NCBI GenBank assembly: GCA_014896535.1
Contig: JADBKE010000007.1
Location: 68,571 to 132,570 of the forward strand
Direction: 5' to 3'
Origin: Candidatus Fermentithermobacillaceae bacterium
GTDB taxonomy: Bacteria; Bacillota; Sulfobacillia; Fermentithermobacillales; DUSS01
Length of the DNA stretch: 64,000 nucleotides
In this document: positions 10,238 to 53,493 of the stretch, piece by piece
Layout of the letters: each line of letters begins with the position of its first letter
How positions within the stretch are numbered: the first letter of the stretch is position 1
Translations under genes and position numbers: made by a program
Notes under the pieces: model-generated
What the model saw: only the letters and a program-made list of their open reading frames with translations
What the model was told of the DNA's origin: nothing
Databases searched by the model: none

Positions 10238-10270
10238 CCTGGTACGGCTGGCTCGTCAGGCTACGGCCGG

Positions 10271-37657: not shown

Positions 37658-38364
37658 TTAGTAAGGAAACTGCTCGACCGCGCTGCGTATGCCACCTAAG
37701 AAAGCACGTAAAATCACGGCATCTTGAGGCCGACAGTGAGAAACTAGTAGGCCCGCGGAACTCCGCATGATGGTGCCCCAGGCCCGCGCAGCACCCGCCA
37801 GTCTGGACGCCCAAGACTGACCAGACAGCCGGGATTCGTCAATACATCTTCGCGTAGTACTTTGTATCATGGGGTGCCAGGAGAACCGTTTCTGCGACAT
37901 GCTGATGCTCGAACGCATCATCTGGACCCACTTGTCGCGCCTATCGTAATAACTCGGTAGGACCCCGCCGAAAGGCACCTTATACAGCGACTCCAAATCG
38001 TGCGCCTCTGAACCCTCGACGCCGTCCCCGAATTGCCAGCCGTTCACCCCGTGAACACAGGCTTCCGGCCACCACCCGTCGAGGATGCTCAGGTTTAACA
38101 CACCGTTCATAGCAGCTTTCATACCTGAGGTGCCGCAGGCCTCGAGAGGACGCCCGGGGGTTATTGAGCCAAACATCCGAACCCCTGGTCATGAGCCGGC
38201 CGATTTTCATGTCGTAGTTCTCGAGGAAGACCACGCTCTTTGGGATACTTCGGGGCGTAGCGAACCAGATTTGCAACTAGCTCCTTGCCCGTATCGTCCT
38301 GCGGGTGCGCCTTTCCGGAAAAGAACATCTGAATACGCCCGTCTTCCGGGTAAGGTTCAATCAC
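37658..38364 (-). pseudogene. glgP: alpha-glucan (glycogen) phosphorylase C-terminal remnant, >=2 frameshifts
   Basis: three consecutive minus-frame pieces: QMFFSGKAHPQDDTGKELV.. / VVFLENYDMKIGRLMTRGSDVWLNNP.. / ..EACGTSGMKAAMNGVLNLSILDGWW..; N-terminal ~500 aa absent. Confidence 0.6.
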
Positions 38365-38437
38365 CTCCGACCCCGTATGTCAACGGCGACTCTCACGCCC
38401 GTGTCCCCCGGTTGCCGAAAAGCAGAACCCGTCAACT

Positions 38438-38686
38438 GGGTGCCGCTTCTCAGTGCCCGGCGATGAGAGCGGCGGTGCTCAATTCCGGTAGCCAGCATTA
38501 TCACCGCCGCCTCGCCGGCTCATTTGGGAGTCACGGTCCCTTAGTCGCCCTCGGTTTCGGAAGCGTTTATTTCCCGAGCGTCCTCATATTCTCCGCTGTC
38601 CTGTGCAAGCACCGTTCCGTTAATCGACTCATTTTGGAATTCCATTAAACCTCAGTTAGAAGCAGATTAAACCTGAGCTTAAGGAT
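38438..38686. repeat. diverged copy A of PepSY-3'end / response-regulator-promoter junction (PepSY body deleted)
   Basis: ~85-100% identity to 45556-45729 plus 46344-46403; identical cores tatttcccgagcgtcctcatattctccgctgtcctgtgc and actcattttggaattccattaaacctcagttagaagcagattaaac. Confidence 0.6.
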
Positions 38687-38691
38687 CGGCT

Positions 38692-39054
38692 ATGGCGAGA
38701 ATCCAAGCTATGACCGGTCCCGAACAGGCGCACGGCGACTATAACCATGTAGATCTTGACGACCCGGAGTTAATAGGGTCGGCGGATGACGGCAGGATAT
38801 TAGTGCAAATCGCCGCTCCGGACGGGCGGGTATTGAACGCTTCAGGGACTTTGAGAGGCACCCTCCTGCCCCCAGGATACGTTGGTCCCCCAGTGCTGTC
38901 AGAAGTGAATGGACAACCAATGATCATCGCAGGAGAACGACTGGCCGGCGGGGCGCTGGTTCAGGTGGCCCGACCCGTGGGAAGGGAGAGAGCGTTTCTC
39001 AGGATGCTGGCCGGGGTTATTTCATACTCGTCCCGCTTCTGTTCGCTTGACTGA
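38692..39054 (+). pseudogene. decayed response-regulator receiver-like ORF (paralog of the fragment at 46447)
   Basis: begins right after repeat copy A; HGDYNHVDLDDPE / DGRILVQIAAPDG weakly parallel to NHEGYHVEIARDG / DLVLLD..PG of OmpR-type receivers; acidic pocket lost. Confidence 0.3.
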
Positions 39055-39340
39055 TAGACGCATATGCCCTTGATAGCCTCGGCCTGGAAAACGGGGTGCT
39101 GCTCCTCGAGAAAAACAAGGTCCAGCCTCAGAGGTTTGAAGAGCTCTTCCAACTCGTTGTAAAGTCTCGCGTAAAAGGAAGGACGCTCTGAGGGTCCGGG
39201 AAGAGGACCGTCGGTTACCACGCCCACGTCGATATCGCTCAGGGGGTCATCCTCCACCACTTTTTCCCCAGCGAGGATCTTAACCCCCGTGCAGGCGCGG
39301 GAACCGAACAGGTATACCAGCGAGAACCCCAGTCTGTATG
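38961..39340 (-). pseudogene. MNT-type nucleotidyltransferase (HEPN/MNT antitoxin-like), N-terminally truncated, no HEPN partner
   Basis: ...LVYLFGSRACTGVKILAGEKVVEDDPLSDIDVGVV (GS-x-DxD motif); frame bounded by a TGA only 10 codons upstream of the GS motif with no start codon. Confidence 0.5.
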
Positions 39341-39523
39341 CGCATCACAAGAGTGACCCGCAAAGTATGGCTGCCCGACAAGTACGGAAGCGTACCGCCG
39401 TATGTAGTTGACACCAACTTTCTCGTAAACGAGGACAGCCGGACCATAGGTAAGCTCTACGGTTGGTTGTCCGAGGAGCGCGCCCCCAAGCAGATAGTTA
39501 CCAGGGCTGCTCGGTTGTGCAGG

Positions 39524-41554
39524 TTAAGCGCCCTCAGTTTGAACGCTTACCGGTGAACCGTACTCGGTTCGGGCAGTTAGCGGTGGACCATGTCCTGTTC
39601 CGGCAGTCGCCGGCGAAGCAGTCTCCAGCTCGAGTAATTCCACGTCTTTTCTGAGATCACGTAGGTCCCAGCGCCGCTTCTGGTACACCGTGAACGCGCA
39701 GTTGTCCCAGTACCGAGATTCCTGAAGATCTCCTTGCTGTTCAAGGAGCTTCGAAAGCCACAGAGCAGCGCAGGCGGAGTCCCGTTCATCGCCGCTCTTA
39801 CGGAAATAATCAAAAGCCTGCCTTGCGCAGGAAATGGCTTGCCTCAGTTTGTTTTGCTGCTTGAAAATGGATGACCGGGTCAAACGAATCCAGCCGATTT
39901 CGTTATGGTTCCTTTCATTGAGGATCTGCTCAGCCTTCCTGAGCAAGGTCTCAGCTTCTTCCAGTTCACCCATTCTAGCATAGATCTTGGCGAGCTCCAC
40001 CTGGGTGTAGGCTATATTAGGATGGGCTGGGTTGTCGACATATGGACCCGCGCCCTTCTCGATGTGCTCCTTGGCTTCTTGTAACCGGCCCTCGCGGTAA
40101 AGGATCATCCCCAGGTTATTATGGGCAGCAGCCCGGTGAGCTTCTGTGGCATGTTCGTCCTGCAAAACACTGAGGAACCTCTGTTTAGCTGCAACCCACT
40201 TACGTTTTCGAAGATGGATGATTCCCGTAAGTAGCTCGTAATTGCACCGCAAGAATCCGATCCTGGGGTCTGCCGAATCTTGCCCCGAGAACCAATCCTC
40301 CAGTTTGGCACACTGTTGCTCGGCAGCATCCAGTCTTGTCAGTTCGATCAAACATGAGATGCTTGAGCAAAGGAGAGCCCCGTAGGTGTATGATCGTGCT
40401 AAGTGTTGTTCCTTAAGGCCCTGACGGTACCAGCGAAGAGCACCTACTGGATCTCTATCGAAGAATGCGTGTCCCATCCGAAGGCACACTTCGGCAGTCA
40501 AATCGGCAGTCAGATCGGATAGCCGGTCCTCGGTGGCGCAGCTCAGGGCAAGCGACCCGAGGGCTCTGGCGGCATCGCCCTCACCTGCCAATACCATACA
40601 GCGTGCGGCCTCACACAGGAGAATCGCCTCCTCACGACGGTTCTCGATCATACGACGGAGCAGAGCGGCTCTATGCCATGCATCTGCTGCATCAGTGAAC
40701 AAGCCGTCCTTCTCGAATAGCCGGGCAGCATGCTCAAATCGAAACGATGCTTGGTCTATGAGGCCCGCACGGAGGAGGCACCGGGCCAGCCTTAGTTGAA
40801 AAAATGGGCCCGAATCTGGATACATCTCCATGGCCCTGGCAAGGGTTAGGTACATTGCTTTAATCTTGTCTTGAGTGTAGACACAACTCAATGGGAACTG
40901 AGGAGCGGCTGCGCTCAGGTTTACGCGATATCCGTCGGTGCTTTCCGCTAGAGTGATCAGGCCCCGAGCTTGAAGATTTGAGGCTAGCTCGATAAACGCT
41001 TGCTCCGTAAGGTTCGCTGTGGCAAGCACCCACTCGCTTCTCGCGTGCGGGCCAGCAATGTGGCACACTGCAAGAAGTCTCTTTTCGGGTTCCTCCAGGG
41101 CAACTGTATCCGCGATCACCATCGAACTGTGGGATTGGAGTTCCTTGATAACAGTAGCCAGGAAGTTCCGCACTGTGCGCGCTTCCGCATCGTTCAGCAT
41201 GCCTGTTGTTAGGTAAAAAGGTGCCCTAAAATCGTGGCCGCGAATTAGGTCCAGAAAAGTATCGATAACTTGACGAAGTCTCATGCGGTCCCGATCTTGC
41301 AGTGAGGGCTGCGTCCGATCGGTTTCCCACGTAGATAACTCGGGCAGTTCTTCAGAGTACAGCACAGACAACGGGACCCCCAGAAACGAGGCGATCCGAT
41401 CCTTCATGTCGTCGCTAAGCCCTTTGGCCCCGTTCAGTACCAGTGAAAGATGCGAAGCGGAAATCTGCGTTCCTTTGGCCAGGTCCTTCAGTCGAAGGCC
41501 TCTCATCTCGAGGAATGCTTTCACGTTACGGGAAAAGAGCGCTTGTGACGGCAT
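39524..41554 (-). CDS. HTH-XRE / TPR transcriptional regulator (RNPP/PlcR-Rap-NprR-like architecture, 676 aa)
   Basis: N-terminal HTH_XRE (LRLKDLAKGTQISASHLSLVLNGAKGLSDDMKDRIASFLGV), then ~550 aa of TPR-like helical repeats; SD AGGAGG 8 nt before ATG. Confidence 0.75.
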   Translation of the reverse strand: MPSQALFSRNVKAFLEMRGLRLKDLAKGTQISASHLSLVLNGAKGLSDDMKDRIASFLGVPLSVLYSEELPELSTWETDRTQPSLQDRDRMRLRQVIDTFLDLIRGHDFRAPFYLTTGMLNDAEARTVRNFLATVIKELQSHSSMVIADTVALEEPEKRLLAVCHIAGPHARSEWVLATANLTEQAFIELASNLQARGLITLAESTDGYRVNLSAAAPQFPLSCVYTQDKIKAMYLTLARAMEMYPDSGPFFQLRLARCLLRAGLIDQASFRFEHAARLFEKDGLFTDAADAWHRAALLRRMIENRREEAILLCEAARCMVLAGEGDAARALGSLALSCATEDRLSDLTADLTAEVCLRMGHAFFDRDPVGALRWYRQGLKEQHLARSYTYGALLCSSISCLIELTRLDAAEQQCAKLEDWFSGQDSADPRIGFLRCNYELLTGIIHLRKRKWVAAKQRFLSVLQDEHATEAHRAAAHNNLGMILYREGRLQEAKEHIEKGAGPYVDNPAHPNIAYTQVELAKIYARMGELEEAETLLRKAEQILNERNHNEIGWIRLTRSSIFKQQNKLRQAISCARQAFDYFRKSGDERDSACAALWLSKLLEQQGDLQESRYWDNCAFTVYQKRRWDLRDLRKDVELLELETASPATAGTGHGPPLTARTEYGSPVSVQTEGA

Positions 41555-41620
41555 GAGTGATTCCTCCTGGAAAAGGCCTGTTCGTCTTCCGTACGCTACG
41601 CTTACATTTGCGGTACCTGC

Positions 41621-41878
41621 TCAGCTTCTACGATCCTGGTTCCCCCGATCGACGGGTGTAGGGCATCCCCTCCAATAGGGGGCTTCGGAGGCATCTGCGG
41701 ACCGTGGCGGACAACGTGGGGGGGGGTTCTCCCTACTGCCGATATCGATTAGGAGTCCAGATGGGCACGACCAGACCGTGTCCGTACCCGAAAAGGCAGA
41801 CCATCCCACGAACCAGAAGACCGTCAGCCACACCACTAAAGTCATAAAGAAGGATTTTGTAGTACGACTTAGCCTCAC
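41621..41878 (-). CDS. small secreted/membrane protein (85 aa) upstream of and co-oriented with the RNPP-like regulator
   Basis: GTG start with strong SD GGGGAGGTG (7-nt spacer). N-terminal hydrophobic segment MTLVVWLTVFWFVGWSAFSG, then a polar tail with 3 Cys (..WSCPSG..PPPRCPP..WRGCP..). Confidence 0.45.
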   Translation of the reverse strand: MRLSRTTKSFFMTLVVWLTVFWFVGWSAFSGTDTVWSCPSGLLIDIGSRENPPPRCPPRSADASEAPYWRGCPTPVDRGNQDRRS

Positions 41879-42282
41879 ATCTGGCCACCTCCCCTGTTAT
41901 CTGTTCTTTAACCGCCCATTGCTTTCCTTCTCAGGAAAGTAGGATACTGGAGCATAGCGCAGGAGAGATACCTCTACCTTGCTTGTTTGCCGTAAGAATA
42001 GTTTTTGACGGCGAACATATACATGGCGCAGCCGTATCAACGGTCCCAGTGCTCGGGAATTTGCCGGTAAGCGACTCGGACCTCGGACACACGTGCCAGG
42101 GAGTTCATCCAATATCCCGCGTTTTACCCCCGGTGAACCACATGAAACGTGGAAGCACCAAGCAGCTTGATCCAGGCCGACTAGCCTTGTACTGTCTGAA
42201 TTGGGGACTTCATCTGGAGTTGCCGCATGCTGAAAGGAGGGCTTCGCACGAAACCAGGCTAGACTCGAAGGAGGTGAGAAAT

Positions 42283-43494
42283 GTGTTCAAAGTGGAAAAG
42301 GTGAGTCTCCCAGCTTCCACGGGTCTGATCCGCCTACTCGCTGACGGAAAATGGTGCGGCTCGGGGTGTGGCGACGGTTGCGGCAGGGGGTGCGGATTGG
42401 AATGCTACAACTGATGGAAGCATCTGGCAGACTCCCTGAATTCATCGCGCAGCGTGGCAACGCGACTTTCGATGACGCCTGAATCGGCGGTAGCTATAGC
42501 TCGAGCCTGTGTTGAGAAAATAGGAGGGCCCGACTTCTACATGTTTTTCGGCGGCGAACCCACCATGAACATTGCAGCAATCAACCGGGTATTTGACGCG
42601 CTCGGCGGAGACAACGCTCCACAGTTGTTTGGAATTGTGACTAATGGCACCTTTTCGCGGAAGGAAATTCAGCACCTTCTCGAAACCCACAAGATGACCC
42701 TGACATTCAGCATCGATGGTCCCCAGGACATACACGACTTTCTGAGACCCTACAGCGATGGGCGCGGCTCGTTCAATACCGTCCTAGATAACTTACGGTG
42801 GGCTCAGCAGTTCACTAGAGTAGGCGTTGAAGCTACTTTCACACCAGATCATATAAAACGTGGGTACTCTCTTGTAGACCTGATCGAGTTCTTTCATAGC
42901 ATCGGGATAGACGGGCCTCATATCGTGCCAGTAGCACCCAGGAATGGTTACCGCGGGTTCGAGCCCGATATCCTAATACGCGAGTACAAACAAGCTATTG
43001 ACTATTGTCTACAGTCATTTGTCGAGGGCCGTCCCCGCTGGTACACGCTCCTAGTGAACATTCTCGGCGCTTTTGCCGACGGTCGCAAGCGCGAGTACCT
43101 TTGTCCTGCAGGTGTTTCGACCCTCTGCGTCGATTCCAATGGAGACCTTCATCCGTGCTTTATGTTTGTGGGTGCAGCGGAATTCCTGCTAGGGAACATT
43201 TTCCATCTCGACAAATCCGATTTTGAAAAACGAAGAGACACCTTTATCCGGGCCGCACGCAAGTCCAACCGCAGTAATTGCAGTTCTTGCTGGGCCTCTA
43301 ACATATGCGGCGGCTGTATGGGAAGTGCTTTCTGGGCGACCGGGTGCCTTACAGACAATGACCCCGCATGGTGTGAGCTCCAGAGGCAGACCATTGCGTA
43401 CGCTGCACAGAGGCTTTCCAAACTCCACAGCGATCAAGCAGCCTGGCAATGTTTCGTGGACACACTCACAAAGGCAACAAACGACGTCGAATGA
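42283..43494 (+). pseudogene. radical SAM/SPASM maturase, SCIFF-maturase paralog, with in-frame TGA at the third Cys codon of CX3CX2C (42412-42414)
   Basis: track ORFs 41983..42414 and 42454..43494 share one frame separated only by that TGA. Strong SD GAAGGAGGTGA 8 nt before GTG 42283, and no SD before 42454. Joined N-terminus STGLIRLLADGKWCGSGCGDGCGRGCGLECYN[TGA]WKHL..SMTPE..FFGGEP aligns with the SCIFF maturase N-terminal region (CNLRCRYC...KMSPE...FFGGEP); C-terminal SPASM region also parallels SCIFF maturase (C.AGV..GDL.PC..F.G..EF....CxSCWA..CGGGC). Confidence 0.7.
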
Positions 43495-43515
43495 GAACGG
43501 GAGGTAGTGATTCCT

Positions 43516-45162
43516 ATGATCGCTAATTTTGCATGGATGTTCCCTTTGATGCGCAGATATCGTGTACTGACGGCTGTGGTGATAGGGATAGGGGTATTTC
43601 ACTGTGTGGCGCGTATGGGCTATCCCTGGGCTCAGAAGGTCTTCATAGACTCGGTAATCATGCCGAAACGAGCCGACTTGCTACCCGCAGCAGCAGCCCT
43701 GTTTGTCGCGACTGCAGTACTTGAGATCGGGGCAATGCTTCTCAATACATACATCTCGACCCTTTACTCGCAGAAGATATTGCTCTCGCTCAGAGAGGAG
43801 ATATACGGGAAGTACCGGGCCAGTAGTTACGTAACGCAAACCCGAGTTGAGCCTGGTAAGGTAGTATCACTGATGCTATCGGACGCCTCATCTGTGAGCG
43901 AGACTTTTAATGAGGTTATTCCCGAGCTGGCTGGTACGCTTGGAACATTAATCGTATACACGGCGGTGCTAGTTGCCCTGAATTACCGCCTTTTCCTGAT
44001 AGCACTGCTATTCCTACCCATTTATCTGCTCGGCCCAAGGCGATTCTCCCCGGTCCTGTACGGCCGCGGCCAGCAGGTACAGTCTGCGATAGAGGGTCTG
44101 AACTCGGTTCTCCAAGACGATTTAGCCAGGACCACTGACGTGTACGCAGTGGGGGCCAGAAACTGGTCGGTGGCACGTGTCCTTCAAGCCGCAAAGCAGG
44201 TGATGTCCGCGGTCAAGAAGCAAGCAATAGCTCTCCAGTTGCTGGGTTCATCAGTATTCGGTTCACTCATCATCTCCCAGGTCACCCTGCTCGTGGTTGG
44301 CGGCTACTTCGTGATCAACGGTACGATGCAGCTCGGACTCCTTCTTGCTTACGTGTCTTACACATCAGGGTTCTTCAATGCCTGCAAAGAGGTTTTCAGG
44401 GTGTCCGCAAGTCTTGCTGGACCTAAGGCGGCTTGGGACCGGATAACCGAGTTTTTGAAGACACTAGATCCAATCCCTAGTGAAGGTGAGCCGGCGGAGT
44501 TGACCGTACCGTCAGTGCTCCTCGAGGGCATCACTTTTGGGTACCAGCCGGACTCGCCTGTTATCCATGAGGTAAGCTTATCCGCTGACAGAGGTTCTAC
44601 ACTTTGTATTGTGGGTGCGAGTGGTTCAGGTAAAAGCACCGTTCTCCAGATAATCGCCGGATTCTTAAAGCCGTGGCGAGGAGTGTGCAGGGTGTTTGGG
44701 CACGAGACTTCCGGACTACATCCCGACGAACTCAGAGGCGCGGTGTCGTATGTGGTGCCGAATCCCCGAATGTTCCACGCCAGTCTGAAGGAGAACATCC
44801 TTCTCGGCAGAGAAGTCCGTCCTGAAGGTCTCGCCGCGGCCTGTGAAGTATCCGGAGTGAACGAGTTCGTAAAGGAACTGCCCGACGGTCTTGATACTGT
44901 GCTTGGGGACAAAGGTTACGGGCTGAGTTTGGGTCAACAGCAGCGAGTGGGTCTGGCGAGGGCTCTGGTTGGCAGGCCGAAGATTCTCGTTCTAGATGAA
45001 GCACTCTCGGGTGTGCATCCGCCGTTAGCAAGCCAGATCCTGACGCGCCTCAAAGAGTTCCAGCGGGATGGCATAATCATCCTCGCGACACACCGGGCGG
45101 ATACTATAGCCCACGCAGATCGAGTCGTTAACCTGGAGAATGGGAGATGCGTTGGGCCGTAA
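43516..45162 (+). CDS. ABC transporter, fused permease/ATP-binding protein (peptide-exporter type)
   Basis: 6-TM N-domain; Walker A GASGSGKST, signature LSLGQQQR, Walker B ILVLDEA; start set at ATG 43516 (SD GGGAGG). Confidence 0.8.
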   Translation: MIANFAWMFPLMRRYRVLTAVVIGIGVFHCVARMGYPWAQKVFIDSVIMPKRADLLPAAAALFVATAVLEIGAMLLNTYISTLYSQKILLSLREEIYGKYRASSYVTQTRVEPGKVVSLMLSDASSVSETFNEVIPELAGTLGTLIVYTAVLVALNYRLFLIALLFLPIYLLGPRRFSPVLYGRGQQVQSAIEGLNSVLQDDLARTTDVYAVGARNWSVARVLQAAKQVMSAVKKQAIALQLLGSSVFGSLIISQVTLLVVGGYFVINGTMQLGLLLAYVSYTSGFFNACKEVFRVSASLAGPKAAWDRITEFLKTLDPIPSEGEPAELTVPSVLLEGITFGYQPDSPVIHEVSLSADRGSTLCIVGASGSGKSTVLQIIAGFLKPWRGVCRVFGHETSGLHPDELRGAVSYVVPNPRMFHASLKENILLGREVRPEGLAAACEVSGVNEFVKELPDGLDTVLGDKGYGLSLGQQQRVGLARALVGRPKILVLDEALSGVHPPLASQILTRLKEFQRDGIIILATHRADTIAHADRVVNLENGRCVGP

Positions 45163-45555
45163 CACTTGAGGTCTGTCTGAGGTAAGGCGCGCCGAGTCCC
45201 CGTAGGTGTTAGGGAACCGGAAGCGCCTTAGCTTTCCGCCGACCAGCTCTGTACCCTCGCAGTAGCCCTGATACGCGTCAAAAGCAACGTAGTGCACTGG
45301 ATCACCCCTGCGAACCCTGGGGGCACGGACGGAGTTGTGCGACATCCACCTATCCGGGCTCGTGCCCACCGGGCGGGTCGTTGGGGACAGCTTCTTCGTG
45401 TCACGAAAAGTTATCTCAATCCGAGACAAGGTGCTCGTGCATCTACCCTATCGTTGTTCCTTTTTCAACCTCGGCCTGTACGGCAGAAGTAACCACTTTC
45501 GCAGCAACCTTGGCAGCATGCCCGGAAATAATGGTCGAGCGGCACCTGCTTACGA

Positions 45556-45729
45556 GGTGCCGCTTTTCACTAGCTGGCGGTGAGGGCCGCGATCCTCTGT
45601 CGTGGCATCCAGCATTACCACCGCCGGGTCATTTGGGAGACGGTCGTCTAATCGCCTTCAGTTTCGGAACCGCCTATTTCCCGAGCGTCCTCATATTCTC
45701 CGCTGTCCTGTGCGAGCACCGTTCCGTTA
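45556..45729. repeat. diverged copy B (part 1) of PepSY-3'end junction
   Basis: homologous to 38438-38622; here continuous with the intact PepSY gene. Confidence 0.6.
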
Positions 45730-46169
45730 CCCGCATCAACCTTGACGTCCACGGTCCCCGTCGACGTCTTTATTTCGACGCTGTATACCACGTTACCGTT
45801 TTCATTATCGAGAGAAACCTTGACGACCTGTCCCGGCACCGCCTTCAGGGCGCTCGCAGTAGCTTGTTCGGGGGTGATTTTCGCCAGTTGCTGCAAGGAC
45901 CTGCTTTCGGTCGCTTCGTCGTCCTGATTATCGTCTTCTGCGGTATCCTGCGGGTTCGGCACGCGGATAGAGGCTGTGTACGACGGGTTTTGGGCTTCAT
46001 GCTGTCCCTGTGCTGGAGCAGCGTTTTGGGTTGCCGGTTGCGTAACCCCTGCTGCCTGGCCTACCCCATTTGCCGCCTTTGCCGTCTGAGCGTTGTACAC
46101 GCCCAGACCGGCGAGTCCCCCAAGTGTCAGCATCCCCAAGACCAAGCAGGCTATCAGTTTCTTGCTCAT
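45648..46169 (-). CDS. secreted PepSY-domain protein
   Basis: signal peptide (MSKKLIACLVLGMLTLGGLAGLGVYNA), low-complexity linker, C-terminal PepSY fold (..VVYSVEIKTSTGTVDVKVDAGNGTVL..). Confidence 0.7.
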   Translation of the reverse strand: MSKKLIACLVLGMLTLGGLAGLGVYNAQTAKAANGVGQAAGVTQPATQNAAPAQGQHEAQNPSYTASIRVPNPQDTAEDDNQDDEATESRSLQQLAKITPEQATASALKAVPGQVVKVSLDNENGNVVYSVEIKTSTGTVDVKVDAGNGTVLAQDSGEYEDAREIGGSETEGD

Positions 46170-46343
46170 TTGAAGTACCTCCTGTCAACTGCGGTTAGGC
46201 TGGAATTCTTCTGATTGACTTATCCCTGTTCGCCAACATCAACCGTCTCTTGACACTTCATCTCCGGTACAGAGCTAGTCACCCCCTTCGCGCTGGGTTT
46301 CGAGAAGCCACAGCCGTTTCCGGCTCAGTAGGCAATCTACTCG

Positions 46344-46403
46344 ACTCATTTTGGAATTCCATTAAACCTCAGTTAGAAGCAGATTAAACTTGAGCTTAAG
46401 GAT
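46344..46403. repeat. diverged copy B (part 2): PepSY upstream / response-regulator promoter segment
   Basis: 59/60 identity to 38627-38686. Confidence 0.6.
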
Positions 46404-46446: not shown

Positions 46447-46575
46447 ATGGAAACAAACGCCAAGCCTCGCATTCTCGTGGTTGAAGATGAGGCCAGCCTG
46501 GCCCGTTTCCTTCAACTGGAACTGAATCACGAGGGTTACCATGTAGAGATAGCCCGAGACGGATGTGAAGCTCAC
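46447..46575 (+). pseudogene. OmpR-family response regulator, N-terminal ~42 codons only
   Basis: METNAKPRILVVEDEASLARFLQLELNHEGYHVEIARDGCEA then loss of receiver similarity; the convergent TPR gene begins at 46592. Confidence 0.5.
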
Positions 46576-46591
46576 AACCGAAGAGCTCAGA

Positions 46592-47665
46592 CTAACTCCC
46601 CTCTACAGCCCTGCGCGCCCACGCAAGGGCTTCGGCTATGTCTTTGTAGGGAACGCGATGAGCCCTGTCGTCGGGGTTTCTCAGGATCATGGCTTTCTGG
46701 AACTCTTCCATTGCCAGTAGGACATCACCCTGACTGCGCGCCCAGACGCCCATCCAGTAATGAGCGTCAGGGTTTCTCGGAGCAGACTTGAGGGCTTTTT
46801 GAAAATGAAATCCGGCCTGCTTATGTTCCGCCTGGGCCATGTAAACGGCGCCCAGTCCGATGTGGGCCTCGGCTAGAGTCGGAAGGTCTTCGAGAACCTT
46901 TTGATAGGCGGACGCAGCGGCCTCAAGTTCCCCCTTGGCCGCGAGGACTTCCCCCAGGGCCATCGAAGCTAGGGGGCCGTCACTTGTGAGCTCCTGACAC
47001 CGGATGGCTTCCGCTAGAGCTTCTTCGTGACGACCAAGCCGGGACAAAATTCTGGCGAGGAGGTAGTGCGCGTGCGGGTCCGAAGGCGTTCTTTTGAGAC
47101 CCTCTTCGAGAAGTCTCGCCGACTCAGGAAGATCGCCCTCTCCCCAGGCGAGGCTTGCCAGTGCCATGTACGCTGCTTCGGTAGCTTTTCCGGTATCCAC
47201 CGCCCTCCTGTAGCGGAGGTTAGCTTTGTCGTAGTCGTGCCATAGCCACCTGTCGAGGAAACCGGCGTGTTCGAGAAGGATTTCGCGCCAGATGAACCAT
47301 CCCAACAATACCCAGACGAAAAGGGCCAGGAGAACGAACCTTCCGTCAAGGCCTTTCCATATGTAAGCAGCCCAACCTCCGAGCACAATGATGAGAAAAC
47401 CGGCATTCCACGGATGCCTCCACGAAAATCTGACGGGCTCTCGCAAGAAACGTACACCCCCCAAAGCCTTGGCAGCTGTTCCCGATGGCCCCGGTGGCAA
47501 AGGGCACCTGTACCCCGAGGCGCATATCCCGCAAAGAAGGATTCCCCGGATCACCTTGCTTGCTTCACATTTTGAGGCCTCTGCGGATGAAACCGCGCGG
47601 AAGACCTTTCGGGCGGCAACAGACTCAGGTCCAGCCGGCGTACACCGAACGGGCACCTCGCTCAT
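46592..47665 (-). CDS. TPR-repeat membrane protein
   Basis: two N-terminal TM helices then >=6 TPR repeats (..AHYLLARILSRLGRHEEALAEAIR..). Confidence 0.55.
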   Translation of the reverse strand: MSEVPVRCTPAGPESVAARKVFRAVSSAEASKCEASKVIRGILLCGICASGYRCPLPPGPSGTAAKALGGVRFLREPVRFSWRHPWNAGFLIIVLGGWAAYIWKGLDGRFVLLALFVWVLLGWFIWREILLEHAGFLDRWLWHDYDKANLRYRRAVDTGKATEAAYMALASLAWGEGDLPESARLLEEGLKRTPSDPHAHYLLARILSRLGRHEEALAEAIRCQELTSDGPLASMALGEVLAAKGELEAAASAYQKVLEDLPTLAEAHIGLGAVYMAQAEHKQAGFHFQKALKSAPRNPDAHYWMGVWARSQGDVLLAMEEFQKAMILRNPDDRAHRVPYKDIAEALAWARRAVEGS

Positions 47666-47890
47666 TCGCCGGCGTTATTCTGTGGACGCGGTTGCACTTG
47701 ACTACCAGGTTCTGGTATATTGTGATCGCCGGTGGCAACAAGGGCCTATCAAGAGATGAAATCAACACTTGCCGTCTTTGGCAATCAGGCTCACGCCCGG
47801 AGTAGCAACAAGGGCCTGTTGAAATACGAAACCAAAACACGCCCCCGCATCTGGTCAGCCAGGAAAGGATTTTTCCGGCAACGAGCACGG

Positions 47891-49549
47891 ATGCCCTCTG
47901 CTCGAGCCCGTCTCCCGAGCGTTTTTGTGCTCGCGCTGCTTGTGTTCTTCCAGACGCTCGTCGCCCAAGCGGGTCCTGGTCTCGGCGCCCGTGCGCAGAG
48001 CTCCGCCCCATACGCTGCCGCCGGCGCTGTTACTTCCCTCGCAGCTTCGGCCCCGGGCGCCGCGACCAATGATCCCTGGTACCGGGACCTCGCTGGTCAC
48101 TGGGCCCGTCCCTACGTCCGCGTCTTATGGGAAGAGGAGGTTGCCGACGGCTACGTTTACCCTTCCGGCCGGTCGTATTTTTGGCCCAACAGGCTGTGTG
48201 ATAGGGCGCAATTCCTCCTATTGCTGGCCAAAGCATTTCAGCTCGAACCTTTTGAACCGCCCGTCCCCTCTTATCCGGACGTAGGCCCTTCGTTTACGAT
48301 CCTGAACGGCAAGAAGATTTGGGCGTACGTAGAAGCATGCGTCCGGGCTGGAATTAGTTTCGTCCCCCCAGGACGGAATCTCTTCCCCAACGCCGAGGTT
48401 ACCAGGGAAGACGCCGTGGAGTTTCTCGTGAGATGCCTGGACTTGTGGCCGATGGCTCAGCTCATCCCGGAGGACGAAGCCAGGCGAATCCTTTCGAGGT
48501 TTACCGATGGTCATACGACTTCACGAGAACGGCTCAAAAGCATGGCACTGTCCGTGCGTCTGGGCATCGTTCAAGGCTGCGGCGACGGTACCCTGCAACC
48601 GCGGCGGCCGATGATGAGGTGCGAGATGGCCACCATTGTATACAAAAGCTGCCTGGTGAGGGCCCAGGCGCACCCCCCGTGGTTTTCGCCGGACGGAGAT
48701 GGGGTCGACGAGACCGTCGAGTTCGAATTCACGTGGCTCAAAAACCGGAACATCGTCTCGTGGAACGGCGGGATAACGGATGCCACAGGCCAGACCGTGT
48801 TCACCTTCAACCCGGGTCAAGCCCCGGGGCCGCCTCCCCGTAGGTCGGCGTGGGGCGGGACGGACTCCTCGGGACGACCCCTGCCCGCGGGACAGTACTT
48901 TTACCAGCTCTGGGTGAAGGACAGATTGGGAAACCAGTTCTTCTCGGTCAGGAAGCCCCTGTACCTGGTCAAACACTTTCTAACGGCGCGTCTTCATCCC
49001 GAAATTGCAGCCGACGGTGACACCGTATTTGTCCTGGCCGAAACCAGGCCCGCCGCGCTGGCCGTAACGGCGACTTTTATCTGCGGTCGTACGGTGCCCC
49101 TGGAATCCGCGCCCGGCGCGCAATCGTGGACCGCTACGCTGGAAATGGGTCCGTGGCTTCCCGTGGGAAAACAGCCGGTTGAAGTTCGTGCGGTTTTCCC
49201 AGGCGCTGTCAGGGAAGAAACGCTGTATCTGACAAGGCTCGATCCGCTGACCATCACAGCCGAAGTGAGACCGAATCCGGCGTCACGCGGTCAGACCGTG
49301 TTGCTTCTGGCTTACACCGGGACGGGAGTTGAAGCCGTGACCGCCACGCTTTTTGGAGAAACGATTGCGATGCGCCCGGATGGCCCGACACGGTGGTTAG
49401 GAGAATCCAAGGTACCGATCACGGCGCCTGTCGGTCCCAACGACGTGCTCTTTTCCGCGTTCGCGGACGGGCGTAGGAAGGATTGTATCGTCATTCTGAC
49501 GGTCGAGGAATCTCCCCTCGTCAATCTCACGTTCATCCTGAGCGAATGA
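47891..49549 (+). CDS. cell-surface protein with three S-layer-homology (SLH) repeats and C-terminal Ig-like (FlgD-Ig-like) domains
   Basis: signal peptide MPSARARLPSVFVLALLVFFQTLVAQA at ATG 47891; three SLH-like units; FlgD-Ig-like segment (..GQYFYQLWVKD..). SLH and FlgD-Ig assignments from memory. Confidence 0.6.
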   Translation: MPSARARLPSVFVLALLVFFQTLVAQAGPGLGARAQSSAPYAAAGAVTSLAASAPGAATNDPWYRDLAGHWARPYVRVLWEEEVADGYVYPSGRSYFWPNRLCDRAQFLLLLAKAFQLEPFEPPVPSYPDVGPSFTILNGKKIWAYVEACVRAGISFVPPGRNLFPNAEVTREDAVEFLVRCLDLWPMAQLIPEDEARRILSRFTDGHTTSRERLKSMALSVRLGIVQGCGDGTLQPRRPMMRCEMATIVYKSCLVRAQAHPPWFSPDGDGVDETVEFEFTWLKNRNIVSWNGGITDATGQTVFTFNPGQAPGPPPRRSAWGGTDSSGRPLPAGQYFYQLWVKDRLGNQFFSVRKPLYLVKHFLTARLHPEIAADGDTVFVLAETRPAALAVTATFICGRTVPLESAPGAQSWTATLEMGPWLPVGKQPVEVRAVFPGAVREETLYLTRLDPLTITAEVRPNPASRGQTVLLLAYTGTGVEAVTATLFGETIAMRPDGPTRWLGESKVPITAPVGPNDVLFSAFADGRRKDCIVILTVEESPLVNLTFILSE

Positions 49550-49572
49550 GCTGTCGCACTTAACGAATGCTC

Positions 49573-50517
49573 TCATCGGGGAATACCCTCATCGGGGAGC
49601 TCCAACGTAACGGGGCCGAACTCACCCTTCCGAAAGCGGGCCAGGTAAAGCTGGGCAGCTCGGGTCAGGTCAACTTCTCCGCCTTTCTTGACCTGACCCG
49701 TTTCCCTTCCGAATTGTTCCAGGAAAAGGAGGGCCGGCTTCGGTGGCGGCCCGGCCGCGTCCTGCAACACCGTTGGCTCGCCGGTGAGCAGTTCGCGGCT
49801 ATCCCCGGAGCGTACCGGCTCCGCCGCCTCCAGGTCGGCTGAAAAACTCGCCCTAAAACCGAACTCGTCAGGCACCCCACCTGGCTTAGCCGGAGCCAGC
49901 CGCTCTATCAGCCAGAGAGCCACTTCCAGCGGGTCGTACCTGGCCTCCGGAATCGCACCGGTGGCAGCTAGGGCCATCAAGGTATCTCCTTTGACCGCGC
50001 CGGGCTCAAGCACACCGGGGGTGTCCAGGAGAAGGAATTCTTCCCCGCACCGTATCCAGTGGATTCCTCGGGTGAGACCGGGCTTTGCGCCGGCGGGTGC
50101 TCTCACCCTGCCGACAAGCCGGTTGATGATGGAGGATTTCCCCACGTTGGGTAAGCCAAAAACCATCAGTTTGAGGGGCCTTTCGAGCGTGCCTGGAGGT
50201 CTCGTCCGGTTCAGCCTTTCCCGTTCGCTCCTGAGGAAGGCGAGGAGCTCTTTCATGCCCTCGCCCGTATTGGCCTGCACGCCAAAGGCTGGCTTCCCCT
50301 CACTTTCCAGGGCGGCAATCCAGCTCCTGGTGGCTGCGGGGTCGGCCAGGTCGGTCCTGGTGAGGACGTAAACGAATTTTCTGGGAGAAAGGTACTTCCT
50401 GGCCACCCGTATCGAAGTCCTCGGTATCCGGGCATCCAGGGCAAACAAGATTACGTCGACGACGGAGAGGAAGGTCCTCCTCCCCGGTGTCATCAAAGGA
50501 TTTCCCCGCCGCTTCAT
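49573..50517 (-). CDS. rbgA: ribosome biogenesis GTPase A (YlqF/RbgA)
   Basis: circularly permuted GTPase motifs (DARIP, FGLPNVGKSSIINRL, DTPG); conserved position next to lepB/rplS. Confidence 0.8.
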   Translation of the reverse strand: MKRRGNPLMTPGRRTFLSVVDVILFALDARIPRTSIRVARKYLSPRKFVYVLTRTDLADPAATRSWIAALESEGKPAFGVQANTGEGMKELLAFLRSERERLNRTRPPGTLERPLKLMVFGLPNVGKSSIINRLVGRVRAPAGAKPGLTRGIHWIRCGEEFLLLDTPGVLEPGAVKGDTLMALAATGAIPEARYDPLEVALWLIERLAPAKPGGVPDEFGFRASFSADLEAAEPVRSGDSRELLTGEPTVLQDAAGPPPKPALLFLEQFGRETGQVKKGGEVDLTRAAQLYLARFRKGEFGPVTLELPDEGIPR

Positions 50518-51080
50518 CGGATAACCCCGGCGAACTTAAACGGCCAGATTACAATGGACGCCCTTCCTTTGATGAGACGGAGCTCCACGGGGCCGAAGCT
50601 CCTAGAGTCCTCGCTGTTCTGCCTGTTGTCGCCCATGACGAAAACGGTCCCGGGCGGGACCACAAAACTTGACATGCTGAACAGACCGGGGTGGAAGACG
50701 TAAGGCTCCTCGACGAGCTGGCCGTTCCGGTAAACTCTCCCCGTGCGGATTTCTATGACGTCCCCCTCGATTCCGATAACCCGCTTGATGTAATCCTTGG
50801 ACGGGTCAAGGGGGTACCTGAATACGATTACGTCCCCGCGTTTGGGTTTGGAAAAGCGATAGGCGAGCTTGTTCACCAGCAATCGCTCGCCGTCTTTTAG
50901 GGTGGGCATCATAGATGGCCCCTGCACCACATAGGTCTCGACGACAAAAGTTCGTATGAAGATGGCCAGGATGAGGGCCACTACTACGATACTTACGACA
51001 TCCTTCAGGAACTCCACTCTCGTTTTCTCCTTGCGGGGTGAGCCCCGGTTGTCGAGACTACTTTTGCCGCTTTTCCTCAA
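50514..51080 (-). CDS. lepB: signal peptidase I
   Basis: catalytic Ser/Lys boxes ([32 protein letters not shown]). Confidence 0.85.
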
Positions 51081-51405
51081 TGCGGGATTCTTTACCCGAC
51101 AGCCCTCTCAAATAGAACAGTTTCGCCCTGCGCACCCGGCCCCTCCTCAAGACCTCGATCCGGTCGATCCTCGGAGAATGCACGGGAAAAGTCCTCTCGA
51201 CCCCGACTCCGTACGAGACCCTTCGCACCGTAAAGGTTTCCCGGACTCCGCCGCGCTGACGTGCGATAACGGTGCCCTCAAAAGGCTGAATACGTTCGCG
51301 GCCTCCTTCGATTACCTTGTAGTGCACCCTGACGTAATCACCTGGCCTGAAGTCGGGGATATCTTCCCTCATGCCTTCCCGCTCCACAAGGCTCACGAGA
51401 TCCAT
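51058..51405 (-). CDS. rplS: 50S ribosomal protein L19
   Basis: [50 protein letters not shown]...; start set at ATG 51405. Confidence 0.9.
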
Positions 51406-51441
51406 TGCCATCACCCTTTCCACTTGAACGCTCTGATTCTA

Positions 51442-52293
51442 TCATTTCACACCGGGTTGCGCGCCTCTGCCGGACGCGTTTGTTCCCAAATCGTCGCCGG
51501 CGTCCGCCTCCCAGGCTATCTCCAGAAGCAACTCCCTGTCCTCCGGTGTAAGTACGGCTTTCTCCAGAAGATCCGGTCTTCTCTCGAGAGTGCGCTTGAG
51601 CGACTGCTTCCGCCGCCATCGCCGAATCTTTTCGTGGTCCCCGGACAGCAGGATTTCCGGCACCTTCATACCCCTATACTCGGCGGGCCGAGTGTACTGG
51701 GGCCCCTCCAGGAGACCGTCGGCAAACGATTCGCTTCTGGGCGACTGGTCGCTTCCGAGCACCCCCGGAACGTATCTGGCCACCGCATCCAGTACCACCA
51801 TGGCTGGGATTTCCCCGCCCGTCAGCACGTAATCGCCGATGGATATCTCCCGGTCGGCGAGGTACCTCACGCGCTCGTCGAACCCCTCGTAATGTCCGCA
51901 AATGAGCACGAGATTGGAAATTCCGGCAAGTTCCCGGGCCATCCGGTCGCAGAAAGTCTCGCCCTGGGGAGTCAGAAGGCAAATGTACGGTGCATCTGGA
52001 GACCCTGAACTCGCGATTTCCTCCTTCACAGCATCGACCGCCTCGTAGATGGGTTCGGGCTTCATCACCATACCCGGACCGCCTCCGTACGGGTAGTCAT
52101 CGGCCGTTTTGTGAGCGTCGTGGGTGAAATCCCTTATGTCCACCAGCTTCACCCGGATGACTCCCCGTTCGATGGCCCTGCCGAGAATGCTTGCTCCCAG
52201 TACTCCTGAGAACATCTGGGGAAATAGAGTGAGGATGTAGACGTTCACGCTACCCGCCCTCTTTTCCCCGATTTCCTTCCAGGCCTCCCGCAT
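51442..52293 (-). CDS. trmD: tRNA (guanine37-N1)-methyltransferase
   Basis: SPOUT/TrmD motifs (LICGHYEGFDERV, GDYVLTGGEIPAMV); probable N-terminal over-extension in the track ORF. Confidence 0.85.
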   Translation of the reverse strand: MREAWKEIGEKRAGSVNVYILTLFPQMFSGVLGASILGRAIERGVIRVKLVDIRDFTHDAHKTADDYPYGGGPGMVMKPEPIYEAVDAVKEEIASSGSPDAPYICLLTPQGETFCDRMARELAGISNLVLICGHYEGFDERVRYLADREISIGDYVLTGGEIPAMVVLDAVARYVPGVLGSDQSPRSESFADGLLEGPQYTRPAEYRGMKVPEILLSGDHEKIRRWRRKQSLKRTLERRPDLLEKAVLTPEDRELLLEIAWEADAGDDLGTNASGRGAQPGVK

Positions 52294-52753
52294 CCTGAGT
52301 TGCGGGGTCTTGTGCTGCGCCGGGCTCCCCTTGCGGTCGCATCTTGCGACCCAGGTCTACGCTGAACGACCGCCCGTCCCTGACGGCCAGGACGACACCG
52401 TCCTCTATCACTATTTCGGCGGCCAAGACTTCAGGCCAGATGTCCCCGGGCTTCACCTCGACCAGTCCCTGGACCTGCCCTCTCACCACTTCCTGCCCGA
52501 TTTCAAGACCGGCGATGTCCTCGAGGTTTTTGATGAGGCTCTGCCGCCTCGAAGCCTTGTCCGCCCTTTCTTTTTCCAGCCGGGCTACGGCTTCGCCTTT
52601 AGCTCCCAGGGCCCGGCGCCTGGCGAGCTCTTCCTCGATGGCCCGGAGCTCCAGGTCGAGCCTGCGAATCTCTTCTTGAATATCGCGGGCAAGCTCTTCC
52701 TTGAGTCCAGGCGTTACCCTGGACTTGACGGTGACAGACCTGAATAACAGCAT
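52250..52753 (-). CDS. rimM: 16S rRNA processing protein RimM
   Basis: RimM N-terminal barrel and PRC-barrel C-terminus; conserved position between the KH gene and trmD. Confidence 0.8.
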   Translation of the reverse strand: MLLFRSVTVKSRVTPGLKEELARDIQEEIRRLDLELRAIEEELARRRALGAKGEAVARLEKERADKASRRQSLIKNLEDIAGLEIGQEVVRGQVQGLVEVKPGDIWPEVLAAEIVIEDGVVLAVRDGRSFSVDLGRKMRPQGEPGAAQDPATQDAGGLEGNRGKEGG

Positions 52754-52778
52754 GGGTCACGCGGGCGCACAGCCGCCA

Positions 52779-53012
52779 TTACTCCAGGATCTCCACGGCC
52801 GCCCTCTTGCCTTCCTTGGCCGCAGCGGCCTGTACGAGGGTCCTGATAGCCCTGACGACCCTGCCCTGCTTGCCTATGACCTTACCCATGTCCTCGGTGG
52901 CTACGCGTACCTCAAAAACGCAGGCCCTCTCGCCTTCAACCTCTTTGACCTGAACGCCGTTGGGATTATCCACTATCGACTTGACGATGAATTCCACAAG
53001 GTCACGCAACAT
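52779..53012 (-). CDS. KH-domain RNA-binding protein (YlqC-like)
   Basis: 77 aa, KH fold with GKQGR loop ([16 protein letters not shown]). Confidence 0.7.
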
Positions 53013-53036
53013 AACCCATCCTCCTCGTTCGTAAGG

Positions 53037-53318
53037 TTAGCGAGTCCCCTCTTCTTTCCGCAACGCCTGCCATCTTTCCATGATACCCGCTTTTGTCAAT
53101 AGGCTCTTCGCAGTAGGCGTAGGCTGTGCCCCGCGTCTCAACCATAATATAGCTTTTTCCTCTTCCAATTTAAAGGTGGGCGGCTCGGTCCTGGGATTGT
53201 AATACCCCAGTTCGTCGATGCTGCGCCCGTCCCTGGGAGCCCTTGAATCAACCACCACCACGCGGTAGACCGGAGCCTTTTTTGAACCTATCCTCTTGAG
53301 TCTGATCTTTACCGCCAA
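53037..53318 (-). CDS. rpsP: 30S ribosomal protein S16
   Basis: [46 protein letters not shown]...; start set at the internal TTG/Leu codon (53318); the track ORF is over-extended. Confidence 0.85.
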
Positions 53319-53493
53319 GCTTTCACCTCTCCTTTCTAGAGATTGTGCCGCGAGATTCCCGTTCCGGGCGGTGCCGGTCCCGGTGGACTCACCCGGGCAC
53401 CTGGTTCCGACCGTACCCTCCATTCCCCGGCACGCGCTTTCGCCTATTCCGCACGACGCCGGCAGAAATACTCAACCGCCGACCGCGTCCCGC

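Follow-up and report, generated by a model that had tools for sequence, protein, structure and literature searches.

The DNA analysed (hereafter the window) is a stretch of 64,000 nucleotides from a Candidatus Fermentithermobacillaceae bacterium (assembly GCA_014896535.1, contig JADBKE010000007.1). It was compared with L001 (GCA_012842495.1), a relative 98% identical in DNA, and with the loci L002/L003; the maturases of L001 and L002 are referred to as P0001 and P0002. The locus consists of a surviving precursor peptide gene and part of a radical SAM/SPASM maturase gene, flanked by genes for a regulator and an exporter. The features are as follows, with a further peptide gene elsewhere in the window listed last.

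39524-41554, minus strand: HTH (XRE-type) and TPR regulator, 676 aa, intact and divergent (Pfam HTH_3 and several TPR families)
42267-42277, plus strand: Shine-Dalgarno sequence GAAGGAGGTGA of the precursor peptide gene (read from the sequence; identical in L001)
42283-42414, plus strand: predicted 43-aa RiPP precursor peptide gene with a GTG start (ortholog in L001, paralogs in L001 and L002/L003)
42412-42414, plus strand: TGA, which terminates the precursor peptide gene and does not stand for Cys or Sec in the maturase (same TGA in L001 at 9202-9204; TAA/TAG in the paralogs)
42415-42468, plus strand: non-coding spacer of 54 nt, 3' of peptide gene 1 (colinear with L001 9205-9258)
42468..42469, no strand: deletion junction with 1,054 bp missing (L001 9259-10312; blastn colinearity with L001)
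42469-43494, plus strand: 3' remnant of a radical SAM/SPASM maturase gene, codons 105-445 and stop (tblastn with P0001, domain matches)
43549-45162, plus strand: ABC exporter (permease and ATPase), intact, without a C39 peptidase domain (Pfam ABC_membrane and ABC_tran)
about 24109-24264, minus strand: true SCIFF peptide, which pairs with the SCIFF maturase at 22615-24090 (minus strand)

The initial annotation had described the locus as a second SCIFF-maturase-like gene interrupted by an in-frame TGA, and several of its elements were confirmed in the sequence. The reading frame of ORF 41983-42414 is also that of ORF 42454-43494, and TGA 42412-42414 is the sole stop between them. GAAGGAGGTGA is a strong Shine-Dalgarno sequence whose GGAGG core (42270-42274) ends 8 nt before GTG 42283, and the read-through translation runs ...CGSGCGDGCGRGCGLECYN*WKHLADSLNSSRSVATRLSMTPES... 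as claimed. The window also encodes the canonical SCIFF maturase with which the locus had been compared, at 22615-24090 on the minus strand (TIGR03974, 489 bits with a cutoff of 425).

Alignment with L001 by blastn showed that window positions 39142-42468 match L001 5934-9258 at 98.5% and positions 42469-45846 match L001 10313-13693 at 97.8%, leaving 1,054 bp of L001 without a counterpart at a junction that is blunt and without microhomology. In L001 this interval (9259-10312) is taken up by peptide genes 2 and 3 and by codons 1-104 of the maturase, which include CNMRCRYC. A tblastn search with P0001 placed residues 105-445 on the remnant at 97.9% but found no counterpart of residues 1-104 in the window. 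The alternative that L001 gained the extra DNA by insertion was ruled out because this DNA encodes a domain and a motif that are kept in P0002 and all other homologs. The deletion removed two paralogous precursor genes, the ribosome-binding site and start of the maturase, and the codons for its N-terminal leader-recognition-type domain and CNMRCRYC cluster motif. The leftover 341 codons stand in frame with the peptide gene by coincidence, giving the illusion of one TGA-interrupted gene. A stand-alone precursor gene with a true TGA stop, followed by a maturase cut at its 5' end by the 1,054-bp deletion, is very probably the explanation of the locus. The deletion looks recent since the remnant has not decayed any further: additional stops and frameshifts are absent, and no relaxation of selection is detectable, its pN/pS of 0.29 being on a level with that of the intact neighbouring genes (0.29 and 0.39). 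This value rests on 15 differences in total, a number so small that it tells no more than a recent date for the deletion.

We considered whether the real genome keeps an intact cluster of three peptide genes and maturase, the 1,054 bp having been lost in assembly or binning or being deleted in a subpopulation only. The window evidently comes from a metagenome-assembled genome, and the deleted interval includes paralogous peptide genes, which could cause a collapse. However, the junction joins a unique spacer to the unique interior of the maturase rather than two repeat copies, and it does so without shared bases. A separately built assembly, the Logan contig L004 of SRR24392716, whose sample is possibly the same as the window's, has the identical junction at 100% over 7,062 bp. 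In a collection of 15 billion proteins, the P0001 cluster contains only the L001 form and two shortened forms, with no intact allele of the window's lineage, and the identical 340-aa shortened product has been deposited as MBE3518970.1. An artefact is improbable on these grounds.

To be a functional member of the Radical_SAM family (PF04055), a protein needs a CX3CX2C motif, or a variant of it, at the barrel's N-terminal end, where it ligates the [4Fe-4S] cluster that binds SAM. In the remnant this motif is absent, as the initial annotation had stated for the downstream ORF, and so is the N-terminal leader-binding-type domain; the PF04055 match (36.2 bits) does not begin until profile position 27. 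What has been retained is the GGEP motif, the remaining barrel and the Cys-rich SPASM region. SPASM domains are C-terminal extensions rich in Cys (CX2CX5CX2-3C with flanking Cys) that serve auxiliary [4Fe-4S] clusters, and the remnant contains the corresponding motif CSSCWASNICGGC, with flanking Cys that are invariant in the homolog alignment. TIGR04085 scores 49.2 bits with a cutoff of 27, in agreement with the earlier SPASM assignment, and PF13186 is borderline at 21.1 bits with a cutoff of 21.5. The intact orthologs each have a separate, supported start and their own CX3CX2C, a finding that the initial annotation itself had named as one that would speak against it. P0001, a radical SAM/SPASM maturase of 445 aa, possesses an N-terminal domain of its own and the segment ...LVLMVSRDCNMRCRYCYAGHGIYGTELPSMTPES..., and P0002 has 463 aa, contains ...DCNLRCRYC... 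and is 55% identical. CN[ML]RCRYC occupies ortholog residues 85-92, all of 7 homologs have C85, C89 and C92, and the segment falls inside the deleted DNA. Because the remnant should be incapable of binding the SAM-cleaving [4Fe-4S] cluster, it is predicted to be a dead enzyme, and the window locus would no longer be able to mature its peptide.

NCBI annotates the remnant as a 340-aa 'SPASM domain-containing protein' (MBE3518970.1) starting at ATG 42472. If translated from this codon, the remnant could have taken on a new function as a SPASM/auxiliary-cluster protein acting by itself, and the orphan peptide might undergo maturation in trans, the SCIFF maturase being one candidate for this. The intact remnant ORF with its unrelaxed pN/pS fits such a role, as do the intact regulator, peptide gene and ABC exporter and the presence of a second thioether-forming maturase in the window. 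Nevertheless, neither ATG 42472 nor GTG 42454 is preceded by a Shine-Dalgarno sequence, and with so few differences pN/pS cannot tell recent loss from constraint. The remnant is also without the SAM-cleaving cluster and the leader-binding domain, and the SCIFF maturase, which shares only 28% identity with P0001, has a cognate peptide of its own. A new role of this kind is very unlikely, and the remnant is better regarded as what the deletion left of the maturase.

The surviving peptide gene encodes 43 residues, MFKVEKVSLPASTGLIRLLADGKW-CGSGCGDGCGRGCGLECYN, with a conserved leader at the N-terminus and a CxxxC-periodic Gly-rich core at the C-terminus (CGSGCGDGCGRGCGLEC, Cys at every fourth position). 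Its ortholog in L001 differs by one residue (D31N) and ends in the same TGA. Beyond position 9258, L001 continues with the spacer and Shine-Dalgarno sequence of peptide gene 2 and contains no maturase sequence there; two further paralogous peptide genes follow the TGA-ended ortholog, with the stops TAA and TAG. In L002/L003, three peptide copies likewise stand immediately 5' of the intact maturase. The peptide family comprises 7 sequences from three independent loci, the searched collections having yielded only two independent orthologous loci. All seven genes have an SD-like purine run just 5' of the start codon, which lies directly before F-[KR]-[VA]-E, and the leader MF[KR][VA]E[KR][VI][ST]LP and a C-terminal Asn are kept throughout while the Cys/Gly core varies (invariant positions are M1, F2, E5, L9, P10, several Cys and Gly, and the C-terminal N). 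The codon right after the invariant Asn is TGA in the L001 ortholog and TAA, TAG, TAG, TAG and TAA in the other peptides. Members of the pep1 type end in ...C-Y-N-stop, that is C-x3-C-x2-stop, after the CxxxC-periodic core, and the other paralogs end in C-x-C-x-N-stop. C-x3-C-x2-stop is a trait of the peptide family and no relic of CX3CX2C.

The window gene has the general properties of a RiPP precursor gene: it is a small ORF with its own signals and a maturase neighbour, and its family has a conserved leader, a variable core and tandem paralogs. With its own Shine-Dalgarno sequence, GTG start and true TGA stop, 42283-42414 is predicted to be a complete, stand-alone RiPP precursor gene. The initial annotation had mentioned expression of the Cys-rich piece alone as a further possibility, and in this it was correct. 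The spacer 42415-42468 is open in the peptide frame by chance.

The reading in which UGA is recoded, either as selenocysteine or by near-cognate Cys/Trp readthrough, to give a 403-aa radical SAM enzyme with UGA as the third ligand can practically be set aside. The open frame across the TGA and the local C-x3-C-x2-TGA pattern speak for it, and placing Cys at the TGA lifts the Radical_SAM score from 36.2 to 43.4 bits, a rise that the inserted CxxxCxxC alone would give. The joined translation does not gain with family-specific models (PapB 152.4 bits vs 152.6 for the remnant alone, SCIFF 95.0 vs 95.2), and the putative motif has no beta-1 strand in front of it. Homology between the upstream piece and the maturase N-terminus is lacking: the 104-residue N-terminus of the orthologs is different and carries its own CX3CX2C. 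In L001 the peptide ends in the same TGA, and the downstream frame there enters the spacer and then peptide gene 2 instead of a maturase, contrary to the claim that the TGA marks the third cluster-ligand codon. At the homologous position the paralogs have TAA or TAG. The residue-for-residue alignment with a maturase that had been proposed also fails: the read-through has 19 residues from the TGA to the Met of MTPES, whereas the true ortholog has 13 from the third Cys to this Met. The fold of 42400-42480 (-19.2 kcal/mol, z = -0.03 vs shuffles) is not SECIS-like, an Rfam search at a permissive E-value gave no match in 41400-42600, and there are no tRNA genes in the window. The resemblance to selenoproteins that carry Sec for a metal- or redox-active Cys is limited to the superficial in-frame TGA pattern; here the TGA aligns with TAA/TAG stops rather than with Cys, the upstream segment lies outside the enzyme, and there is no SECIS-like hairpin at the UGA.

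A single-base nonsense change (TGY to TGA) at the third Cys codon of a full-length maturase paralog has just as negligible a chance of being right: the locus is a pseudogene and the window has other decayed genes, but maturase homology begins only at 42469, 54 nt past the TGA, what comes before it corresponds, just as it does in L001, to the peptide gene with the spacer 3' of it, and the lesion is the 1,054-bp deletion. The three readings originally offered (nonsense change, sequencing error and UGA recoding) are refuted because all of them assume that the TGA interrupts a maturase. The associated idea of a decaying paralog survives insofar as the copy is pseudogenised, though by a deletion and not by a point mutation, and the description of the downstream gene as SCIFF-maturase-like and of the radical SAM/SPASM kind was likewise right. 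The window locus is an ordinary pseudogene with one surviving RiPP precursor gene and a dead maturase. The main value of this result is a corrected annotation, in which the apparent selenocysteine or recoding at a radical SAM ligand is a chance in-frame juxtaposition. CxxxC-periodic RiPP precursors located 5' of maturases that have lost their 5' ends can mimic an interrupted CX3CX2C, and a single close ortholog is enough to settle such cases.

Among curated families, the best-scoring one was PapB (NF047865), with 152.6 bits for the remnant, 183.8 for P0001 (profile positions 5-326 of 330) and 178.8 for P0002, all of them far below the cutoff of 340 bits. The common features are the radical SAM core, the SPASM architecture and a precursor with many regularly spaced Cys, as in PapA/freyrasin-type precursors. 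In contrast, the orthologs begin with an additional domain of about 75 aa for which the PapB model, with its 330 positions, has no counterpart. In substrates of PapB-family ranthipeptide enzymes, the Cys sulfur is cross-linked to a non-alpha carbon. The cross-links made by PapB join Cys to Asp/Glu within CX3D/E-type motifs (PMC9413430). The present peptide differs from this Cys-X3-Asp/Glu rule: four positions on from each Cys stands another Cys, Gly makes up most of the spacers, and Asp/Glu occur only singly.

The nearest solved structure by sequence is the SCIFF maturase CteB (PDB 5WGG, E = 2.7e-30). SCIFF systems (TIGR03974) share with the present one an N-terminal domain, a radical SAM core and SPASM region, and a short Cys-rich precursor. 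However, with a TIGR03974 cutoff of 425 bits, P0001 reaches only 128.1 and the remnant and its read-through remain at the values near 95 given above. SCIFF precursors have six Cys in about 45 aa and a GCGECQxSCQSACKTSC-type core, which the adjacent MFKVEKVSLP...CGSGCGDGCGRGCGLECYN does not show. The present system is further distinguished by three tandem precursor paralogs, the MFKVEKVSLP leader and the C-terminal Asn. The CXXX periodicity of the precursor recalls the CXXX-repeat-target family (TIGR04115), which is named after this feature, but the enzymes score far below its cutoff of 350 bits (remnant 63.4, P0001 86.0). The maturase scores are also low for CcpM (TIGR04068, 76-92 bits with a cutoff of 500) and CefB (NF038107, 53-71 bits with a cutoff of 600).

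Searches of the seven narrow-family peptides and six distant ones gave no match in NCBIfam and only one sub-threshold match in Pfam (C_GCAxxG_C_C). A profile search of 5.8 billion proteins returned no family members beyond those of L001 and L002, and an exhaustive hmmsearch of 1.84 billion representatives found only the L001/L002 peptides, the other matches being long repetitive Cys/Gly-rich proteins. The back-translated leader pattern had 48 matches in JGI metagenome contigs, of which 0 were confirmed, and a regex over 84 fetched loci gave no new member beyond L001/L002. For maturase orthologs, a contig scan of genomes yielded relatives at 33% identity or less only, among the matches listed, and a metagenome scan only relatives at 24% identity. 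The maturase/peptide family is rare, is absent from NCBIfam and Pfam, and is so far known from no more than Ca. Fermentithermobacillaceae-like MAGs and a second metagenomic lineage.

The locus thereby documents a rare radical SAM/SPASM RiPP family with three tandem Gly/Cys-rich precursors, a modest possible target for RiPP discovery through the intact relatives rather than the window locus. In these relatives, the gene content suggests that the regulator, three precursors, maturase and exporter together would make and export a thioether-cross-linked (sacti-/ranthipeptide-like) peptide. It is possible, though somewhat doubtful, that the intact cluster (L001, L002/L003) could be an undescribed RiPP family, with a wider version that would take in L007, L011 and L013, distant Firmicute relatives with Gly/Cys-rich precursors. 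Its cross-links (e.g. Cys-to-Gly alpha-carbon thioethers or other Cys-based ones) may differ from those of known sacti- and ranthipeptides, and the window precursor and exporter could, equally tentatively, still serve with a peptide that is unmodified or matured in trans.

A promoter/terminator scan of 41500-43600 found nothing above shuffle expectation. The ABC exporter, for which an alternative GTG start exists at 43507, is syntenic and of equal length in L001 (pN/pS 0.39), and its NCBIfam matches are bacteriocin and NHLP-type exporters, all below cutoff. The HTH-TPR regulator is syntenic in L001 and L004 (pN/pS 0.29). Other decayed genes are present in the window, e.g. a phosphorylase remnant at 37658-38366.

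The ORFs at 41983-42414 and 42454-43494 lie in one frame and, as read directly from the sequence, the TGA at 42412-42414 is the sole stop between them. The initial annotation took this TGA as the third CX3CX2C cysteine codon of a SCIFF-maturase-like gene. As it stated, the downstream ORF encodes part of a radical SAM/SPASM protein and lacks CX3CX2C; the Pfam Radical_SAM alignment covers it only from profile position 27 onward (36.2 bits), and SPASM model TIGR04085 gave 49 bits. The read-through translation, used as a protein query, recovered two close relatives, P0001 (445 aa, from a Ca. Fermentithermobacillaceae MAG, 98% identity over the common part) and P0002 (463 aa, 55% identity), whose N-termini are ~100 residues longer than that of the window ORF. 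In both, a conserved N-terminal domain precedes the segment ...DRKRLVLMVS[RH]DCN[ML]RCRYCYA.HG.YGT.LPSMTPES..., and the window's similarity to them starts precisely at SMTPES. The window sequence 5' of this point is unlike either protein, and residues 1-104 of P0001 have no match anywhere in the 64-kb window. The orthologs possess their own N-terminal domain and CN[ML]RCRYC motif, which refutes the cluster-ligand assignment of the TGA together with the three explanations offered for it (nonsense change, sequencing or assembly error, UGA recoding).

P0001 is encoded on contig L001 (GCA_012842495.1, DUSS01000009.1), which is syntenic with the window; the layout common to both consists of a divergent HTH-TPR regulator, a spacer, the maturase and an ABC exporter. 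The relevant features of the window are as follows.

39524-41554 (-), HTH-TPR regulator
42283-42414 (+), peptide gene 1
42469-43494 (+), remnant of the maturase gene (3' part)
43549-45162 (+), ABC exporter

By blastn, window 39142-42468 matches L001 5934-9258 (98.5%) and window 42469-45846 matches L001 10313-13693 (97.8%), therefore the intervening 1,054 bp (L001 9259-10312) are missing from the window. The junction, 42468|42469, is blunt and without microhomology. The remnant has neither the leader-binding-type N-terminal domain nor the three cysteines ligating the SAM-cleaving cluster (C85, C89 and C92), which are invariant in seven homologs. Because it has no CX3CX2C cluster to generate the 5'-deoxyadenosyl radical, the remnant would be inactive. 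The earlier suggestion of a decaying gene holds in general, but the lesion is a deletion and not a point change at the TGA.

An assembly artefact or subpopulation variant at the junction is very improbable. A 7,062-bp Logan contig (L004, run SRR24392716) is 100% identical to window 38643-45704, junction included. The same 340-aa truncated protein, starting at ATG 42472, was deposited as MBE3518970.1 ('SPASM domain-containing protein') from a Ca. Fermentithermobacillaceae MAG, where a contig of 264,797 bp encodes it. A 15-billion-protein collection contained no intact allele from the lineage of the window, and both sides of the junction are unique sequence rather than repeat copies. The maturase loss looks recent, since no further stop or frameshift is present in the remnant and its pN/pS against L001 (0.29; 7 synonymous and 7 non-synonymous codon changes) equals that of the intact regulator (0.29) and is near that of the ABC exporter (0.39).

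The initial annotation had mentioned last that the Cys-rich piece might be expressed alone, and this proved correct. The Shine-Dalgarno sequence that it reported before GTG 42283 is present (GAAGGAGGTGA at 42267-42277, core GGAGG 8 nt 5' of the GTG). The same peptide ORF, (V/M)FKVEKVSLPASTGLIRLLADGKWCGSGCGNGCGRGCGLECYN, occurs at L001 9073-9204 with the Shine-Dalgarno sequence, GTG start and TGA stop all as in the window, and a non-coding spacer, not the maturase, lies downstream of it. L001 contains two paralogous peptide genes after this ORF, MFRVEKVSLPRASRVGILSGFGCGMRCGRDCGAVCGWGCECKN (start ATG, stop TAA) and MFKVERITLPPGSQISPLAGYVCGIGRCEGHICGFGCVCQN (start TTG, stop TAG), and its maturase starts ~370 bp 3' of both; likewise, the more distantly related L002/L003 locus has three peptide genes upstream of P0002. 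The leader MF[KR][VA]E[KR][VI][ST]LP is common to all seven peptides, as are a Gly-rich core whose Cys mostly recur every four residues and an invariant C-terminal Asn right before the stop, for which TGA, TAA and TAG are all represented. Judged by sequence, the Cys-rich piece and its paralogs show the standard anatomy of RiPP precursor genes, and C-x3-C-x2-stop is the ending of pep1-type family members, not a CX3CX2C relic. None of the peptides matched a precursor model.

Joining the peptide to the remnant brought no gain on family-specific models: the PapB model gave 152.4 bits for the joined sequence versus 152.6 for the remnant alone and 183.8 with the real N-terminus, and the SCIFF model gave 95.0, 95.2 and 128.1 bits, respectively. 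Pfam Radical_SAM rose from 36.2 to 43.4 bits once Cys was placed at the TGA, which reflects the CxxxCxxC string only. The RNA 3' of the TGA folds no better than shuffles (z = -0.03), so the SECIS check suggested earlier yielded no SECIS-like hairpin; Rfam had no match around the TGA and the window contains no tRNA genes. The TGA is found in three assemblies (the window, L001 and L004) and is therefore not a base-calling error.

Neither the remnant nor the intact orthologs reached any curated equivalog cutoff.

Scores against known maturase families (bits; cutoff)
PapB, 184; 340
nif11-type, 164; 519
QhpD, 130; 453
SCIFF, 128; 425
CcpM, 92; 500
CXXX-repeat, 86; 350
CefB, 71; 600

PapB substrates described in PMC9413430 carry Cys-X3-Asp/Glu motifs, whereas the window-family peptides have Cys at i+4. 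The narrow family is very rare, being recovered only from the L001 and L002/L003 lineages among 5.8 billion proteins, 1.84 billion representatives, JGI metagenome contigs and, among the matches listed, GTDB species genomes. A Lachnospiraceae bacterium, Enterococcus ureilyticus and Anaerocolumna sp. encode more distantly related maturases (25-28% identity), and all three have 2-3 tandem Gly/Cys-rich precursor ORFs (L007 2234-2827, L011 2400-2873 and L013 2352-2782, respectively) bearing leaders such as IKIEEVKLPS. No NCBIfam model matched these precursors, and they may belong with the narrow family to a wider RiPP group not yet catalogued.

In the intact relatives, the MFKVEK... leader is most likely bound by the maturase N-terminal domain, the maturase most likely puts Cys-derived thioether cross-links into the core, and the matured product would most likely be exported by the ABC transporter. 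The thioether chemistry is proposed because the closest families (PapB, nif11-type maturases, QhpD, SCIFF/CteB) all form thioethers or are related to enzymes that do; among solved structures, 5WGG is the closest (E = 2.7e-30). ABC_membrane and ABC_tran are the only domains of the exporter; as it has no C39 peptidase domain, another protease must remove the leader in the intact system. Today the locus holds one intact precursor gene, the maturase remnant, and an intact exporter and regulator; it is an ordinary deletion pseudogene, and the precursor gene that survives beside it belongs to a rare family of uncharacterised rSAM/SPASM RiPPs. For RiPP discovery, the intact relatives have modest value and the window locus little.

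The window also contains, as annotated initially, a canonical SCIFF maturase, with which the initial annotation had compared the read-through, at 22615-24090 (-) (TIGR03974, 489 bits; cutoff 425). A typical SCIFF peptide (MKHIQLVVKGELDQIENRGCGECQASCQSACKTSCTVSNQEC...) is encoded just upstream at about 24109-24264 (-), and the two make up a bona fide SCIFF system.

The RiPP block (39142-45846), which spans the regulator, peptide gene, maturase remnant and ABC exporter, is ~98% identical to L001 in DNA but the syntenic flanks (37836-38366 and 46574-54220) only 80-90%, which suggests recent exchange or recombination of the cluster between the two lineages. Direct repeats surround the block (38421-38686 versus 45538-45751 and 46338-46403, 71-97% identity), and both ends of L004 (38643, 45704) fall within them. 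The upstream repeat copy resembles a duplicate, shortened by an internal deletion, of the 3' end and upstream region of a PepSY-like gene at 45648-46169 (-). Beside the cluster, 37658-38366 (-) is another pseudogene, a glycogen/starch phosphorylase-type remnant spread over three reading frames; its alignment to the intact L001 gene (537 aa, PF00343) covers just ~530 bp from the 3' part. A small nucleotidyltransferase-like ORF at 38961-39260 (-), called as PF18765 Polbeta in L004, lies at the left edge of the 98% block and adjoins the rearranged region. The regulator and peptide gene 1 are separated by a long, highly conserved spacer of 728 bp (41555-42282, ~98% to L001). It contains an 85-aa ORF at 41621-41878 (-) with a hydrophobic segment, whose C-terminus is frameshifted in L001; this ORF may be a gene, or the spacer may be regulatory.
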